Below are positions 2,522 through 61,187 of a stretch of 64,000 bases of DNA, piece by piece. The notes beneath the pieces were generated by a model, which was not told the origin of the DNA, did no database searches, and saw nothing but the letters and a program-made list of their open reading frames with translations. The DNA is taken from NCBI GenBank assembly GCA_017609405.1, contig JAFCDZ010000002.1:22593-86592 (forward strand), given 5' to 3'. The position numbers and the translations under genes are program-made. Every line of letters begins with the position of its first letter. The stretch's first letter is position 1. This DNA is from Candidatus Pacearchaeota archaeon (GTDB lineage Archaea > Nanobdellota > Nanobdellia > Pacearchaeales > GW2011-AR1).

Positions 2522-5500
2522 TTAGTCCTCATCATATTTATTTTTTAATTCAAAAGTTGTATGTATATGAAGCCCTTGAAGTTCTTCTATCAATAGCTTG
2601 AATGCATAAGATACTTCTACAGGAGATACTTCTTCACTCTTACATATTGGACAATATTTTTTATGTTTTAGATGGTCTTCTATTGCTATTGCACCACATT
2701 TATCACAAACATGTATGACAACATTGTCTGAGCTATATCTTTCTTTTAGTAATAATGATGCTCCATGCGCGATTAATGCTTGCTGTTCCATTTCACCTAA
2801 TCTCAATGCACCTCCTCTTGCTCTTCCTTCAACCGGCTGTCTTGTTAATAGAGCAATCTTACCTGATGCCCTTCCATGTATTTTGTTCTTAACCATATAT
2901 TTAAGTTTTAAGTAATATATATTTCCAACAAATATTTTTATATCCATCTTCTTTCCTGTTATTCCATGATACATTGTTTCTTTTCCATCATATCTAAAGC
3001 CTATTTCTTCTAACATCTCTTCTAAATCTTCTTTTTTGACATGTGAGAAAGCAGTTCCATCAATAATTTGTCCAGTTAATGCAGCTACTTTTCCTGCAAT
3101 AGCATCTAATAAATAACCAGCAGTCATACGACTAGGGATACCATGAGGATTAAATAAAATATCTGGTTTAATTCCTTTTACTGTAAACGGTATATCTTGC
3201 TCAGGCATTAAGAAACCTATAACACCTTTCTGTCCATGAGGTGTAGCAAATTTGTCACCAATCTCAGGAACTCTTTGGTCTCTTGTTTTTACTTGAACAA
3301 TTTTATTACCTTCATCATCTACAGTTATAAATACACTATCAACAACACCCTCTTCTTCTTGTCTCATTGTCACACTTGATTCTTTCTTTGTTCTTATAGA
3401 GATTTCTCTTGATTCTGATAAGAACTTTGGAGGAGATTCTTTTCCAATTAATACCTCTCCTGGTTTTGCTTCTGATTCAGGAGATGCAATTCCATCTTCT
3501 TCTAATAATCTATAACTTTCTTCTGTTCTGTAACCTGTTACATCCTTATCAGGGATTTTTATTTCATCTTTTAATCCACCAGCATAATTCATTTCTACAG
3601 TATTGTATGGTCTAAAGAAGAAGCTTCTTCCAAGACCTCTATCTACGCTACCTTTATTCATAACAATAGCATCATCAATACTATAACCTTCTCCAGAAAC
3701 TATTGCGACAATTATATTCTGTCCAGCAGGATATATATTGAGGGAATCGTATACAAAACTTCTTACAATTGGTTTTTGAGGATACTCTAATATACCAACA
3801 TCAGTATCTAATCTACTATGATAATTTGCAGCATATAATCCAATTGATTGTTTCTGCGCTTTACTAACTCTTAATAATCTTGAGCTTTGGTCATGATTAC
3901 AAAAAGGAACAAGACTTGTTATCACACCCAATAAATCAATAGGGTCAATTTCAAGATGTGTGTGCTCAGGTGTTAATTCTTCAGGATATAATGCCACTAA
4001 TGCATTTTCTTCTTCAGAAGCATCAAGATATTCAATAACCCCTTCTTTTAGCAACCCATTCCAATCTAAAGAGCCTTCTTCAAGTTTTATCAAATGTTCT
4101 TCAGTTAGTTTTGGAACACCATTCTCTACAATTATTAAAGGTCTTAAAACTCTTCCTTCCCCTATTGAAATTCTTATAGTATCTAAATCAGAATTTTCAC
4201 TAATACTAATTTCATGAGGAATCTCTCCATTTCTTCTTTTTTCTCTGAACTCTTTCACAAATCCGCTCATATCATCTGTTGTTCCAACAAATACCCCATC
4301 AATAAACACATCACTTCCTTCAGAATAATCTTCTTCTTTTAATCCAATCTCTTTTAATATACTCAATAATTCCTCTTTTTCCATTTTGACTCTTGTAGAT
4401 ATTTTTCCGAGCAATGCAAGGTTTTTTCTTAGACCAATCTCAGTACCTTCAGGAGTCTCAATTGGACAGAATCTTCCATAGTGAGTGGGATGTAATGTTC
4501 TTGCCATAAAGTTTTCTTGCTCACTCGGAAGCATACTTGAAACCTTTTGAAGTTGCGAAATAACAGATAGCCTGTTTGTCTTGTCCATATTTTGAGTTAT
4601 ACCTTTTCTGTCTCCTATCCAGCTACCTGTTGCTATTGCAGATTCTATTTTACGAGAGAATAATGTTGATTTTGCAATTGTCTTTATAGAATATTGCTTA
4701 TTTCTCCTTGAAGCTTTTTGTAGAGAATATTTCATGTCTCTAACAAATGAACGAAGATTTACCCTGAATAAGTTTGTGAGAAGGTCTCCAGATAATCTTA
4801 TTCTCTTATTTGAGTAATGGTCTTTGTCAGTTCTTATCTCAGGATTTTCTTTTGCTTTCAAGAACTTCTTTATTAATTTACAGATTGTAACCGCTTTTTT
4901 CATTCTTACTTCTTTATCAACCCCTATATGTGGAAGTAAGTAAGAATCAATTCTTTCTTCAATTCTTCTCAATACTTCTTCTTCAGTCCCTTGAAGTTTT
5001 ACTTTGTCTGCAATTAATTTTAATGCTTCTTCTCTTGTTCCAATATGAGCAAATTCATAAAAATTAACAATTAAGCTATCTGATTCTTTTCCAATTAATT
5101 TTGATATCTCTGCTTCTTGTGTCATTCCAAGAGCTTTTAATATTACTATTGCAGGAATGTCCTTGAATCTTGTGAATGTTATATTTAGATTTCCTTTTTT
5201 ATCTTCAGATATTGTTACAGGAATTCTATAAGTTCCTCTTAATGAAAAAATTCTTAGTCTTAATTCATCATTGCTTCCTTCTATAAATGGTTGATTTTCT
5301 GCTAAATCTTCTGCAAGAACCATAACCCTCTCATTACCATTTATTATGAAATAACCTCCAGGGTCATTTGGGTCATCAAAGTATTCATTCATTATTTCTT
5401 CATTACTTAACCCATACAAATTACATGCCTTGCTTTTTACCATTACAGGTATCTTTCCAATTTCTACAACATCTGTTTCTATTTTATCATCTTTTTTTAT

Positions 5501-10733: not shown

Positions 10734-11063
10734 TTAGTTTATGTTTTCATTTATCCATTGACGAATAGCATCTTCTGGCATCAGTCCAACAAACTCGCTC
10801 ACAATTTTTCCATCTTTGAACATTTTTACATTTGGAATACTCATTATTCCATATTCTTGGCTTTTTAACGGATTTTCATCAACATTCATCTTTGCAAGAA
10901 CAACTTTTCCTTCATTTTCTTCAGCAACTTTTTCAATTAAAGGGCCGAGCATCACACAAGGAGCACACCATGGAGCCCAAAAATCAACAATTACTGGAAT
11001 TTCTTTTGATTTTTCAATTACTTCTTGCTCAAAATTTGAATCATTAACTTCTATTTTCGCCAT
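10734..11063 (-). CDS. trx: thioredoxin (CAPC active site)
   Basis: 109 aa with WAPWCAPC and a thioredoxin-fold pattern. It is adjacent to trxB. Confidence 0.9.
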   Translation of the reverse strand: MAKIEVNDSNFEQEVIEKSKEIPVIVDFWAPWCAPCVMLGPLIEKVAEENEGKVVLAKMNVDENPLKSQEYGIMSIPNVKMFKDGKIVSEFVGLMPEDAIRQWINENIN

Positions 11064-25747: not shown

Positions 25748-27472
25748 ATGAAAGAAGAGCTAATTCAATTTATACAAGAGAATAATCTATCTCCTTTTAA
25801 TGAAAAGAGAGTCTTTTTAGAAGGAAATATAACCTTTTATAGAACAAGAAATGCTAAACAAGTACATAGAAGAGTAATATCTAAGTTATCTGAAGGGTTT
25901 GTTTTTCCAGACACAAGCAATCTATTTGATTTTTTTAAGTTTTCAACTTCTTCAGAAGAAATAAAGAAAAGACAAGATTTTTTTAAGAGAATAAAAGATT
26001 TTGGGGTAATTAATAATAGTTTTTTAAAAGAACTTAAAAAACCTCTTAAAACTTGGACTCCTGAATATAGTATAATTGTTGTAACTGAAAATTATGAGGT
26101 TTTTGAGAAACTAAGACAAAATAATTGTCCTGTCCAGATGATTGTTTCGGAGTCAGATATTTATCCTCTAAAAGATTATGATATTGTTCAGATTTTTGAT
26201 TGCCCAGAGCATCAATTTGCACTTGAGAATCTTCCAAATTCTGTATTAATAAACTCAATTGATGATGCTTATTTAGAAAGATATCTTGAAGAGCTTTCAG
26301 CTTGGAAGCAAAATCTTTTTGAATTAGCAGACAAAAATATTGGAAAAGAAGGAAAAGCTCTTGTTAAAGAATTAAATTCTTTGCTAAGCTTGCTTGAATA
26401 TAATGATTCTATATTAACTAAGGACTTTATTGAAAAAAAGGTGGAGGAAATAAATGAAAAAGTTTCTATGAAACTAAGAGAACTTACAATAAAAGGGGAA
26501 TCTCTTGTTCACATGATTGAGAAAGGGGAGCTTCCTGAGGAGCTCAAGAAAATTACAATGAATGCTATTAATGAAAGCTCTCTTCCAATTAATGTTCTTA
26601 ATATTGGTATTCCTGTAACAATTGATGAAATTGAACTTGATAAACTTATACAACAAGAAAGCTCAAGCAGCTTTATAAGAAAACAGGAGGAAATAAAGAA
26701 TCAAGCAGAAATCATCAAAAAAATACCTGAAAAACTATCAAGATTGTCATCACTTCTTCTCGTCTTTGATTTTATTTCTGGAATATCAAGATATTTAGTA
26801 GACAAGGAAAATTTTCCAGAAATTAAAGATTTCTTTGAAATAAACAATTCAAAAAACATCCTCTTAGAAGACCCTCAGCCAATTTCTTTCAGATTAATTG
26901 ACCACAGATGCTCTGTTTTAACTGGTGCAAATTCAGGGGGTAAAACAACATTATTAGAACATATTATCCAATTGTATTCTTTATTGCAGTTAGGGCTACC
27001 AGTATATGGAGAGTTTAATTCTCCTTTATTTGAGGATATTTATTATTTTGCTAAGAATAAAGGGAGTGCTACAAGAGGGGCTTTTGAAAATCTGTTGTCT
27101 CAACTATCAAGCATAAAACCAGGAAATAAGACTCTCATTCTTGCAGATGAAATCGAGGCTGTTACAGAACCTGGTGCAGCTGGAAAAATTATTTCTGCAA
27201 CTATTGAGTATTATGTGAAAAAGAATTGTTTTTTGATTATAGCAACACATCTTGGGCAAGAAATAAATGAAATGCTTCCTGAAAAAACACGGATTGACGG
27301 CATTGAAGCAAAAGGTCTCGATGACAACTTTGAATTAATTGTGGATCATAATCCAATTGAAAATCATCTTGCAAGCTCAACACCTGAATTAATTATTGAA
27401 AAGATGGCACGAAAAAAATATAATGATTATCTTAATTTTGTCAATTCTTTCATAAAATCAAGAAATATATAG
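25748..27472 (+). CDS. MutS domain V ATPase (archaeal MutS2-like protein)
   Basis: Walker A LTGANSGGKTTLL, Walker B LILADEIEAVTEP and ATHL, preceded by a long helical N-terminal region. Confidence 0.75.
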   Translation: MKEELIQFIQENNLSPFNEKRVFLEGNITFYRTRNAKQVHRRVISKLSEGFVFPDTSNLFDFFKFSTSSEEIKKRQDFFKRIKDFGVINNSFLKELKKPLKTWTPEYSIIVVTENYEVFEKLRQNNCPVQMIVSESDIYPLKDYDIVQIFDCPEHQFALENLPNSVLINSIDDAYLERYLEELSAWKQNLFELADKNIGKEGKALVKELNSLLSLLEYNDSILTKDFIEKKVEEINEKVSMKLRELTIKGESLVHMIEKGELPEELKKITMNAINESSLPINVLNIGIPVTIDEIELDKLIQQESSSSFIRKQEEIKNQAEIIKKIPEKLSRLSSLLLVFDFISGISRYLVDKENFPEIKDFFEINNSKNILLEDPQPISFRLIDHRCSVLTGANSGGKTTLLEHIIQLYSLLQLGLPVYGEFNSPLFEDIYYFAKNKGSATRGAFENLLSQLSSIKPGNKTLILADEIEAVTEPGAAGKIISATIEYYVKKNCFLIIATHLGQEINEMLPEKTRIDGIEAKGLDDNFELIVDHNPIENHLASSTPELIIEKMARKKYNDYLNFVNSFIKSRNI

Positions 27473-27494
27473 ATAAGTGGCTTCTACTAACCCT

Positions 27495-27518
27495 ATAACA
27501 TGGCCTCGACGGGATTTG
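27495..27518 (-). repeat. 24-nt direct duplicate of the tRNA-Lys 3' end (T-loop 3' part, acceptor 3' strand and 6 nt of trailer)
   Basis: ataacatggcctcgacgggatttg is identical to 27708-27731. Confidence 0.9.
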
Positions 27519-27707
27519 GGCCTCACAGAGTTCGACCTGATACGCTTACTCACTTCGTTCGTAATCAAATTAGGCCTCATTCCTGAAAGGCATTCGACCT
27601 GCTTCGCCCAAGCGTGGTGAGCAGGCCTCACCAAAGCACTGAAGCTCGACCTAATTCGTCTACTCCTTTCAGTCGTAGCCAAATTAAACCCAAAGGGTTC
27701 AAATCTG
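27519..27707 (-). other. GC-rich 189-nt insert between tRNA-Lys and its duplicated 3' end
   Basis: Contains three units of the form ggcctca-N(6-20)-tcgacct. The end next to the tRNA holds an 11-nt inverted copy of the tRNA T-arm (gggttcaaatc). The distal ~55 nt is homologous to the insert at the tRNA-Ile locus. Confidence 0.7.
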
Positions 27708-27713
27708 ATAACA

Positions 27714-27787
27714 TGGCCTCGACGGGATTTGAACCCGCGACACCTAGCTTAAAAGGCTAGTGCTCTACCAGGCTGAGCTACGAGGCC
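27714..27787 (-). tRNA. tRNA-Lys (anticodon UUU)
   Basis: Hand-folded cloverleaf: GGCCTCG/TA/GCTC-AGCCTGGTA-GAGC/A/CTAGC-CTTTTAA-GCTAG/GTGTC/GCGGG-TTCAAAT-CCCGT/CGAGGCC/A. 74 nt with no encoded CCA. Confidence 0.92.
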
Positions 27788-27844
27788 TTATACCAGAATT
27801 CTCTAATTCTGGATGATAATAATCGTAAAAATCAATATTTAAAA

Positions 27845-29239: not shown

Positions 29240-29311
29240 ACGCCCACGCCGGGAGTCGAACCCGGATTACGACCGCGACAGGGTCGTGTCATAGCCGCTA
29301 GACCACGTAGG
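29240..29311 (-). tRNA. tRNA-Asp (anticodon GUC)
   Basis: Hand-folded: GCCTACG..anticodon arm CGACC-CTGTCGC-GGTCG..T-arm CCGGG-TTCGACT-CCCGG..CGTGGGC-G. 72 nt. Confidence 0.9.
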
Positions 29312-29560
29312 CATTTTACAATCAGTAATAATTCTTACTCAAAAATATTTTTAAAGGTTTTGCTTTGGTCGGTTTTGTTGAAAAGTTTGTTTAATATAAA
29401 CTAATATGAGGTTAATAGACAATCATCATAAGAAGGGTTCAACAAGTGCTTTTAGTTTTTAGTAATGTCAAGCAAAACTTTCATTCTGAATCTTTCGTTT
29501 CTATACTATTATAATTCTTTTCAAACTTCTAATGATTAATTGTTTTTTAACTAAACAGAT

Positions 29561-59313: not shown

Positions 59314-59789
59314 AATTTATGGTATTTATTTCTCTATTAAACATTTTCTATGTTGCTCTATATGTTTCTTAATCCCTTTTTAATGAACGCCGCGGTCTTT
59401 AGTAGTCTTAATTCTTGCTTCAACATTACAATTATGCACTTCAATTTTATTATTTACCCTTTGAACCTTCTACCCAGTTTGTTATTAAAAAATAAATCAA
59501 GGGCTTAAAGTCATTTAACCTTATTGCAGAATAGATGATGACATAAAGATTTCCAACAACAAATAAAACAAATAGAACTCTAAAGATTTGATGTAAGGAT
59601 ATAAACGCATAAAATAAAATTCCAACTATTAAATCAATAGCAATTCTCTTAAGTGTTTCTCATCCTTATAGAAATTAAAAAAATTTCATTTTCTCGCAAG
59701 CCCGCACATTCGAACTCTCCTCCTTCGAATCTCAATGGATATGACTAAATAAACTAATATTCATTTGTCCGTGGCTAAGAATTCCATGA

Positions 59790-59801
59790 AACGCCCCGGC
59801 C
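59790..59801 (-). repeat. 12-nt duplicate of the tRNA-Glu 3' end
   Basis: aacgccccggcc is identical to 59949-59960 (acceptor 3' strand, discriminator and 2 nt of trailer). The GC-rich match is short, so this is weaker evidence than at the Lys and Ile loci. Confidence 0.5.
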
Positions 59802-59950
59802 TACTCAAGCCTGCACTCGTATTGATATTCTTTTATTTTTAAATTGTCTCGTGCAAACTTTCGGATTCGAATTATATAATCCTTGAGTATAATCCAAAAC
59901 TCTGCAGGGAAATAATATCCATCTTCTTCTCTTCTTCCTGGATATTATAA

Positions 59951-60023
59951 CGCCCCGGCCGAGATTCGAACTCGGGTCACAGCCTCGAAAGGGCTGTATA
60001 CTTGGCCTCTGTACTACCGGGGC
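59951..60023 (-). tRNA. tRNA-Glu (anticodon UUC)
   Basis: Hand-folded: GCCCCGG..anticodon arm CAGCC-CTTTCGA-GGCTG..T-arm CCGAG-TTCGAAT-CTCGG..CCGGGGC-G. 73 nt. Confidence 0.9.
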
Positions 60024-60931: not shown

Positions 60932-60953
60932 TAAATGAGCCTGCGCGGATTTG
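60932..60953 (-). repeat. 22-nt direct duplicate of the tRNA-Ile 3' end
   Basis: taaatgagcctgcgcggatttg is identical to 61036-61057. Confidence 0.9.
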
Positions 60954-61035
60954 GGCCTCACAGTTACTCTGTTGCTCGACCTGATACGCTTGCTCGTTAC
61001 ACTCGCAATCATATCAAACCGCGAGCGGTTCAAAG
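60954..61035 (-). other. 82-nt GC-rich insert between tRNA-Ile and its duplicated 3' end
   Basis: Starts with ggcctcacag...tcgacctgatacgctt, which it shares with the Lys-locus insert. Ends with ccgcgagcggttcaaag, an inverted copy of the tRNA-Ile T-arm. Confidence 0.7.
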
Positions 61036-61039
61036 TAAA

Positions 61040-61114
61040 TGAGCCTGCGCGGATTTGAACCGCGGACCCCTACCTTATCAGAGTAGTGCTCTAACCTGGC
61101 TGAGCTACAGGCTC
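61040..61114 (-). tRNA. tRNA-Ile (anticodon GAU)
   Basis: Hand-folded: GAGCCTG/TA/GCTC-AGCCAGGTTA-GAGC/A/CTACT-CTGATAA-GGTAG/GGGTC/CGCGG-TTCAAAT-CCGCG/CAGGCTC/A. 75 nt. Confidence 0.9.
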
Positions 61115-61161
61115 ATGGTTTTAGTAGCCAGACGGGTTTTAGCGGAATCTTTGATTCCAGC

Positions 61162-61187
61162 CTAACCTGGCTGAGCTACAGGCTCAT
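61162..61187 (-). repeat. 26-nt direct duplicate of the tRNA-Ile 5' end (2 nt of leader plus positions 1 to about 22)
   Basis: ctaacctggctgagctacaggctcat is identical to 61091-61116. The two copies are separated by a 45-nt spacer (61117-61161). Confidence 0.9.

Follow-up and report, generated by a model that had tools for sequence, protein, structure and literature searches.

The window analyzed here is a stretch of 64,000 nucleotides (nt) of DNA from a Candidatus Pacearchaeota archaeon (contig JAFCDZ010000002.1, positions 22,593 to 86,592), in which two of the four tRNA genes, tRNA-Lys(UUU) and tRNA-Ile(GAU), are each followed by a short insert of hairpins and then by a second copy of the tRNA's own 3′ end. 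The minus strand encodes all four tRNA genes. In tRNA orientation, the order of parts is an intact tRNA, a short trailer, a segment antisense to the T-loop with the sequence GAUUYGAAC(C) (hereafter the anti-T segment), 2-5 nt, (G)GGUU, hairpin b, hairpin c, and a distal repeat (Table 1). The (G)GGUU element is a second copy of the T-stem end together with U54-U55. Hairpin b is variable in sequence and always closed by U-A; hairpin c is conserved and consists of GGUC-GA, a loop or small stem-loop, and (U)GA-GGCC. The distal repeat is joined directly to this GGCC and contains the local tRNA from C56 through the discriminator to a few trailer bases, with the junction between insert and repeat precisely at T-loop position C56. 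At tRNA-Lys this copy of the 3′ end measures 24 nt (27495-27518, identical to 27708-27731), and at tRNA-Ile 22 nt (60932-60953, identical to 61036-61057). Hairpins b and c together form a unit, which is present three times in tandem (A to C) at tRNA-Lys and once at tRNA-Ile, where hairpin b has 12 stacked positions including one A×G mismatch, and a GA-N7-GA loop. Inserts of this kind are 60-190 nt long and gene-less, the only frame being one of 74 aa (27458-27682, minus strand) that overlies the Lys unit array and is almost certainly spurious.

Table 1. Positions of the tRNA genes, of the parts of the Lys and Ile inserts, and of the 5′ module in the window
Feature	Position	Strand	Basis or parts
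tRNA-Lys(UUU), intact, without encoded CCA	27714-27787	-	ARAGORN; Rfam tRNA model 73.5 bits
Lys anti-T segment GATTTGAACCC, reverse complement of T-arm positions 51-61	27695-27705	-	sequence
Lys GGGTT, copy of T-stem end and U54-U55; can pair with anti-T AACCC (mini hairpin a)	27687-27691	-	sequence, parse
Lys unit A	27624-27686	-	hairpin b 27652-27686; hairpin c (GGTCGA...TGAGGCC) 27624-27651
Lys unit B	27573-27623	-	short hairpin b 27600-27623; hairpin c 27573-27599
Lys unit C (feature of the first-pass annotation)	27519-27572	-	hairpin b 27538-27572, with two mismatches; hairpin c 27519-27537
Lys distal direct repeat, C56 through A73 plus 6 nt of trailer, CAAATCCCGTCGAGGCCATGTTAT	27495-27518	-	
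tRNA-Asp	29240-29313	-	
tRNA-Glu	59951-60023	-	
tRNA-Ile(GAU), intact	61039-61115	-	ARAGORN; Rfam tRNA model 68.3 bits
Ile anti-T segment TTTGAACCGC (61025-61034), loop TC, GCGGTT (61017-61022)	61017-61034	-	
Ile single unit	60954-61016	-	hairpin b 60982-61016; hairpin c 60954-60981
Ile distal direct repeat, C56 through A73 plus 4 nt, CAAATCCGCGCAGGCTCATTTA	60932-60953	-	
5′ counterpart at tRNA-Ile	61117-61187	-	same architecture in L154, L147, L170, L141, L135

Attention was drawn to these loci by a first-pass annotation, which reported that GGCCTCACAG and TCGACCTGATACGCTT are shared between them. Each occurs exactly twice, adjoining the duplicated 3′ ends of tRNA-Lys and tRNA-Ile, with close to zero chance matches expected. 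The longer string, the 16-mer TCGACCTGATACGCTT, is found at 27532-27547 and 60976-60991 only, even when three mismatches are allowed (0.07 expected). The pattern GGCCTC-N(1-30)-TCGACC has five matches, all within 27502-27651 and 60954-60981, which correspond to the four units plus one overlapping match, and it is absent from 100 shuffles. The motif does lie directly after the local 3′-end copy on the plus strand, as described in the first-pass annotation, but the tRNAs and the structure belong to the minus strand, where the motif is downstream of the intact tRNA and upstream of the distal partial copy. Likewise, the unit described at the Lys locus is the last of a tandem array of three. On the minus strand, the motif resolves into the 3′ strand of hairpin b and both strands of hairpin c: the 16-mer combines the 3′ strand of hairpin b with GGTCGA, the 5′ strand of hairpin c, and the 10-mer reads CTGTGAGGCC, the 3′ strand of hairpin c. 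The antisense T-loop segment had been overlooked. A proposed origin of the motif in the acceptor end of tRNA-Lys is not supported, as tRNAs whose acceptor stems are unrelated are followed by the same GGUCGA...UGAGGCC. Clear resemblance to a tRNA is limited to the antisense T-loop segment and to the GG of GAGGCC, which aligns to T-stem G52-G53; a single copy (unit 2 of L137, where L numbers denote metagenomic contigs and loci) keeps GAGGTT.

Outside the window, the exact 16-mer was not recovered and is specific to the source genome, and a near-exact motif pattern gave only five bacterial chance matches, none of them real, in 185,579 species-representative genomes. The architecture, however, recurs in metagenomes. 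A scan with the pattern AGGTCGA-N(3-20)-TGAGGCC-CRAATCC, which includes seven T-loop bases, returned 46 loci, 18 of which are GC-rich chance matches in coding-like sequence. The remaining 28 loci (27-37% GC, 22 of them distinct) all have the complete architecture, and in these the repeat runs far past the seven T-loop bases that the pattern demanded. Three contigs were checked for their gene content: L170 encodes an archaeal RpoB, L129 encodes archaeal RecJ/GAN and SRP54, and L146 has only a non-diagnostic ABC-transporter permease. Every unit is preceded, at a distance of 44-125 nt, by a tRNA in the same orientation, or else lies at a contig edge where a tRNA 3′ end is visible. The associated tRNAs are those for Lys (UUU, CUU), Leu (four anticodons, AAG, CAA, and UAG among them), Gln, Thr, Ile, Gly, and Met (with an intron), and one of uncertain identity. 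A relaxed search that dropped the T-loop requirement, carried out over 312 kb of retrieved sequence, found 33 tRNA-linked units and one chance match. The earlier proposal of one family with locus-specific duplications is thus borne out, the same core being found behind at least 10 tRNA species, at 22 additional distinct loci. Introns are also present in many of the tRNAs that have a module (L135 6475-6602, L133, L141, L143, L146, L155), L143 apparently with two. The intron of the L135 tRNA-Lys starts with GAUGAUGA and contains GUGAGGA, both of which are box-C-like strings.

Across the 24 junctions that could be compared, the repeat always copies the local tRNA. Its length from C56 is 19-24 nt at 19 junctions (median 21), and the exceptions are tandem duplications or truncated cases. 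The anti-T segment precedes all 24 first units and, in most loci, comes within 0-10 nt after the repeat. Database comparisons did not link these features to a described family. In Rfam 15, the whole window at gathering thresholds yielded only the four tRNAs, and both loci at an E-value of 10 or below yielded nothing relevant beyond tRNAs and no C/D family. In IMG/VR, a specific pattern had no matches and a loose one had only chance matches among those listed. A BLAST comparison of the Lys insert with plasmids and phages produced no match, and full-text literature searches found no description of this module.

Compensatory change, which the first-pass annotation had put forward as a check on its motif, is clearly evident in hairpin b. 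Base pairs were counted in Python on an anchor-based alignment of 27 non-identical units, MAFFT having lost the register of this hairpin. In its outer seven positions, 94% of cells are paired in register, as opposed to 32-48% when the partner strand is shifted by 1-3 nt; with eight positions counted, the fraction of paired cells is 0.89 vs. a mean of 0.53 and a maximum of 0.62 in 2,000 shuffles. Pairs 2-4, 6, and 7 each occur as three to six different standard pair types. The alignment contains 24 G.U cells and only three A.C cells, and this excess indicates that the structure of hairpin b belongs to the tRNA-sense strand, either as RNA or as a single DNA strand. The covariation evidence applies to hairpin b, hairpin c having been fixed by the search pattern; the inner part of hairpin c is G-Y-[GNAY]-G-U or a longer stem-loop. 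A kink-turn is partly tenable for hairpin c, in that the short forms could be K-loops, while the long forms lack a 3-nt bulge.

The anti-T segment pairs with T-loop positions 56-60 in 19 to 23 of 24 units. Opposite R57 of the local T-loop, its Y forms A:U 11 times, G:C seven times, G:U twice, and A:C not once (counted by eye). Beyond position 61, the segment pairs with the local tRNA no more than shuffled sequences do. Because pairing is confined to the vicinity of positions 56-61, the segment is a complement of the universal T-loop and not of a particular tRNA, which rules out a locus-specific antisense segment. Two partners are available to it, GGUU to one side and the distal CRAAUC to the other, and together with hairpins b and c these pairings can be modeled as a four-way junction. 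Folding of single sequences recovered this fold in two of eight cases (L132 and L141) and hairpin b in all eight.

Two further observations concern the Lys array. The loop CUGAAAG of hairpin b in unit A (~27663-27669) is complementary to the loop CUUUCAG of hairpin c in unit B (~27583-27589), a match that could reflect a kissing-loop contact or could be due to chance. Unit C has a chimeric appearance. The 5′ strand of its hairpin b (27538-27572) resembles that of unit A (27652-27686, UAAUUUG..), whereas the Ile unit (hairpin b 60982-61016) is matched by the 3′ strand and by hairpin c. The mixture leaves two mismatches in the stem of its hairpin b and suggests recombination between units.

Comparison of loci points to turnover of the modules. 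The units closest to each other are often found behind different tRNAs (Lys-Gln, 0.85; Leu(TAG)-Gln, 0.78), although the repeat is always local; this agrees with the view, already taken in the first-pass annotation, that the repeats resemble target-site duplications and not a shared attachment (att) core. On one contig, the units behind Leu(CAA) and Leu(AAG) score 0.90, and the nearest relative of the Ile unit in the window is Lys unit C. In the syntenic cluster Leu(AAG)-Arg(CCT)-Gly(UCC), a module follows Leu(AAG) in L150 and is missing at the orthologous gene in L146 and L155. At the orthologous Gly-TCC gene of this cluster, L146 and L155 have a canonical module and L150 has a different insert. 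Tandem arrays are present at tRNA-Lys in the window, in L137, and in L146c, and decayed older layers are seen in L150, L133, L174, and L132. In L137 and L146c, the acceptor strand of the outermost piece is at odds with the tRNA now in place.

A mirror-image arrangement is found at the 5′ side of tRNA-Ile. In this 5′ module, an outer copy of tRNA nt -2 to 24 (61162-61187) is followed by a small hairpin (61144-61158), an antisense copy of the D-arm (61124-61142) with two to three mismatches opposite C16-C17, a spacer, and then the intact tRNA. Among related 5′ modules, the junction is always GGTTA|AAGT, and L170 has two to three tandem copies. The module is missing in L144 and present in the related L147. 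Judging from these sequences, the mirror image suggests that the phenomenon is broader than the 3′ insert.

Taken together, we consider the chances roughly even that the motif belongs, as the conserved core, to a small non-autonomous element without genes, which inserts at T55/C56 with a target-derived duplication of ~20 bp. The target would be the T-loop of tRNA genes in DPANN-type archaea, and a single unit would measure ~60-80 nt and be stackable. Its conserved right end would join exactly to C56 of the tRNA gene, and its variable, short left end would be placed a few bases past the tRNA end. Staggered cleavage of the target followed by fill-in would leave ~20 bp (C56 to 1-4 nt beyond the discriminator) on both sides of the insert, and through this duplication the upstream tRNA gene would stay intact. 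Arrays, such as the three Lys units, and nested remnants could then arise by repeated insertion or by unequal exchange. The repeat would be derived from the target rather than carried by the element. The anti-T segment probably has a role in folding or in recognition of the site, and it may help to recognize GGTT|CRAATC. The strand-specific hairpins would be the functional core of the element. A putative trans-acting enzyme would move it; this may be a DNA transposase, a recombinase, or a reverse transcriptase that works on a sense-strand RNA.

Such an element would share some features with several known systems and differ from them in others. Like short interspersed elements (SINEs) and derivatives of IS200/IS605 (PATEs), the modules are small, gene-less, and present in multiple copies per genome with sub-families, have one precise and one variable end, contain strand-specific hairpins under selection, and use a short conserved target, GGTT|C. 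The precise right end (GGCC|C56), variable left end, flanking repeat, and sense-strand structure are SINE-like, and the strand-specific hairpins and the GGTT| target are PATE-like, but a duplication of ~20 nt is also present, whereas IS200/IS605 elements make no target duplication. SINEs are not known from archaea. Also unlike either group, the duplication always starts at C56 of the tRNA, and no reverse transcriptase or TnpA partner was seen among the 20 window open reading frames (ORFs) scanned. Integration by Cas1-family enzymes produces long target duplications of ~14-37 bp, set by staggered attacks a fixed distance apart, and casposons are often found at the 3′ ends of tRNA genes. The modules resemble casposons and the duplication of CRISPR repeats in the length of the duplication, and casposons also in the tRNA 3′-end location. 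They differ in lacking terminal inverted repeats and genes for Cas1 or a polymerase, in being more than 100-fold smaller, and in their single-stranded hairpin structure. Miniature inverted-repeat transposable elements and classical DNA transposons were rejected, as the ends (..GATTYGAACC and ..TGAGGCC) are not inverted repeats and the duplication is 19-24 nt rather than 2-10 bp. A retroviral-type primer-binding site does not fit a repeat that contains trailer bases absent from the mature tRNA, and a guide resembling the TnpB omega RNA would target the restored tRNA gene itself. The hammerhead ribozyme, hairpin ribozyme, and integron attC were rejected by inspection.

Several points weigh against a mobile element. 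No transposase, integrase, or reverse transcriptase was detected in the ORFs scanned (20 of the 47 in the window of at least 150 aa), and none adjoins either locus. No empty-site allele, circular junction, or autonomous relative turned up, although no dedicated search for them was made. To our knowledge, a target duplication of 19-24 bp is longer than in any known transposase family; Cas1-type integrases come nearest in scale. Because the length of the repeat is inseparable from the distance between C56 and the tRNA end, the repeat may instead be element-borne and of the att type. The pattern used for the metagenomes demanded the T-loop junction, so that copies away from tRNAs would escape it. 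In addition, orthologous modules keep stems b and c while their loops and trailers diverge (L146 vs. L155; L154, L170, L147, and L144), and the distal copy follows the T-stem changes of its tRNA (ccctt in L154 vs. cccat in L170). This pattern can be explained either by a host function in place or by independent insertions of an element under selection.

The main rival, which we regard as possible but on the unlikely side, is that the module and the distal tRNA piece constitute a host-functional small RNA linked to the tRNA, transcribed together with it or from the AT-rich trailer. Under this proposal, the modeled four-way junction may act in tRNA maturation, folding, or modification, for example if the GA/GA motif of hairpin c is bound by a protein or if the partial tRNA copy is sequestered; the tRNA-derived flanks may be part of the design, and spread between tRNA genes may be only rare. 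The conserved sequence of hairpin c, the sense-strand compensatory changes in hairpin b, the orthologous conservation of stems, and the distal copy that tracks its tRNA are all in keeping with such a role, as are the invariable orientation along the tRNA, the L132 and L141 folds, in which the closing stem is recovered with both hairpins, and the mirroring of the module by a 5′ module with an antisense D-arm. G18 and C56 are two sites in the tRNA elbow that are methylated via guide RNAs in some archaea (PMC7912444). The modules resemble archaeal box C/D guides for Gm18 and Cm56, and the guide in the tRNA-Trp intron, in being antisense to the T-loop (C56) and D-loop (G18-G19) in cis, and the tandem GA/GA motif of hairpin c is of a type bound by L7Ae. 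By inspection, however, no C (RUGAUGA) or D (CUGA) boxes stand at the required spacing from the antisense segments: the GAACC of the anti-T segment is followed by UUGG, CUUG, or GCUC and not by CUGA, and the CUGA of the 5′ module belongs to the D-stem complement, which would put G19, not G18, at the fifth position. The complementarity extends over only 5-10 bp, compared with a guide of ~12 nt in box C/D RNAs, can be taken up by pairing within the module, and, as noted, is accompanied by no Rfam C/D match. A box C/D guide was rejected for these reasons. A host RNA in general is further disfavored by the lack of the module at orthologous tRNAs of related genomes and at two of the window's four tRNAs, by strong T runs that often lie between tRNA and module, and by the arrays, decayed remnants, and outer pieces with foreign acceptor strands, which resemble an insertion history and not a design. 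The mobile-element and host-RNA readings are not mutually exclusive.

Both readings can be taken a step further, in a proposal that we hold only as a rather doubtful one. The modules would then represent either a new class of archaeal mobile element, an RNA or single-stranded DNA of ~70 nt that is SINE-like or guide-directed and has a sister family at the D-loop, or else cis-encoded antisense RNAs for tRNA maturation. As a new class, the element would find GGTT|CRAATC via its own antisense segment and insert there with a duplication of ~20 bp. As antisense RNAs, the paired 5′ and 3′ modules would be directed to the two loops of the tRNA elbow and would amount to a new layer of tRNA maturation in DPANN archaea.

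It is improbable, in our assessment, that the modules are scars of a plasmid or virus whose integrase directed it into the T-loop and which brought its own tRNA 3′ end, later deleted down to its ends or reduced to a miniature that is mobilized in trans. The succession of intact tRNA, insert, and partial 3′ copy is classically the mark of elements that integrate into tRNA genes, and partial tRNA genes in archaea are generally attributed to integration events (PMC9897764, PMC3293823). Elements that target tRNA genes with tyrosine integrases are similar to the modules in this layout, in the sharp boundary inside a loop, in a repeat that ends just past the gene, and in nested remnants at the same tRNA, which are also present here. 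They are unlike the modules in other respects. All 24 junctions contain an insert of only ~60-190 nt with no ORF, the ORFs scanned in the window have no integrase domain, and the IMG/VR, phage, and plasmid collections offered no match. Near-identical cores stand behind tRNAs with different 3′ ends and local repeats, and thus each move would require the att segment to be swapped; on the same grounds, with a gene-less insert and no common att core, the remnant of an integrase element was rejected. The core consists of two hairpins that evolve in a compensatory manner on one strand; covariation that preserves structure and includes G.U pairs is unexpected for duplex arm sites, and the mirror-image 5′ module is likewise foreign to these elements.

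We consider it very improbable that the distal piece is joined to the tRNA at the RNA level, whether by splicing of U55 to the distal C56, with the module and the proximal 3′ end removed as a T-loop intron, or as the 3′ fragment of a split tRNA. DPANN archaea are described as having many non-canonical tRNA introns and broad-specificity splicing endonucleases (PMC5829648), several of the related tRNAs are intron-bearing, and the distal copy stays identical to the proximal one. A complete, high-scoring tRNA is nevertheless present upstream in every case (68-74 bits in the window), the product of splicing would equal the unspliced tRNA, and outer pieces with a mismatched acceptor strand exist. 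Furthermore, both junctions start with the same CAAAUCC, which is not self-complementary, so that the central 4-bp helix of a bulge-helix-bulge motif cannot form, and hairpin c has an opposed GA/UGA internal loop instead of staggered bulges. Finally, a chance similarity or a single local gene conversion between the two loci, the null of the first-pass annotation, would agree with an exact 16-mer confined to the window and with the few bacterial chance matches in reference genomes, but it is practically eliminated by 22 independent loci in metagenomes, where GGUCGA...UGAGGCC is conserved and the hairpins covary, and by shuffles that yield no expected matches.

Partial tRNA genes that result from integration are already well known in archaea, and the present hairpin module looks to be undescribed. 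If it is mobile, the T-loop, the most conserved 10-mer in biology, is the landing site of a tiny gene-less element, and the host is spared because the tRNA end is duplicated; the enzyme behind a staggered insertion of ~20 bp would be interesting for its mechanism and might serve as a tool. If it is a host RNA, a conserved structured RNA is added to the tRNA genes of DPANN archaea, about whose RNA processing little is known. Either way, the modules and the partial tRNA copies will cause confusion in the annotation of DPANN tRNAs. The modules also provide a concrete, datable record of tRNA gene fragmentation, which bears on the origin of split and intron-bearing tRNA genes in archaea.

The window as a whole has ~30% GC. 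Proteins encoded in the window are archaeal housekeeping proteins, including RNA polymerase subunit E′, Spt4, S24e/S27ae-like ORFs, SerRS, aIF5B, thermosome, and others. The Lys locus adjoins a MutS2-like gene, whose nearest homologues, apart from one identical entry, are in bins labeled "Pacearchaeota/Nanoarchaeota archaeon" at no more than 57% identity. These homologues and the housekeeping proteins identify the host as a DPANN-type archaeon. In the single relative with a MutS2-like homologue that was inspected, no tRNA lies beside that gene.

Other traces are seen in tRNA flanks. On the minus strand of L146, at tRNA-Leu(CAA) (1897-1983), there are two tandem copies of GAACCTAAC..GACAT plus the T arm to the 3′ end, the outermost 3′ end differing in its acceptor strand. 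In L150, tRNA-Gly(UCC) (4560-4630) is followed by GAGAACCCAAGGGTT and ~75 nt, and then by a copy that starts at the 3′ strand of the T-stem. These are other types of insert that follow the same logic. In the window, a 640-nt non-coding stretch downstream of tRNA-Glu (59700-59950, minus strand) has no b/c motif; it contains a 12-nt copy of the tRNA-Glu 3′ end, GGCCGGGGCGTT (59790-59801), and the T-loop-like fragments TTCGAATCC near 59860 and GAGTTCGAATG near 59710, which may be debris of an older or different insertion. Just upstream of tRNA-Lys is a perfect hairpin, CCAGAATTAGAGAATTCTGG (27793-27812, minus strand). The 17-mer CTACAATGGTAGAAAAG, with a small hairpin CUAC-AAUG-GUAG, is found both in L145, on the 3′ side of the tRNA at 10848-10938, and in L147, where it lies upstream of the 5′ module of tRNA-Lys, and thus occurs in the tRNA flanks of two different metagenomic archaea.

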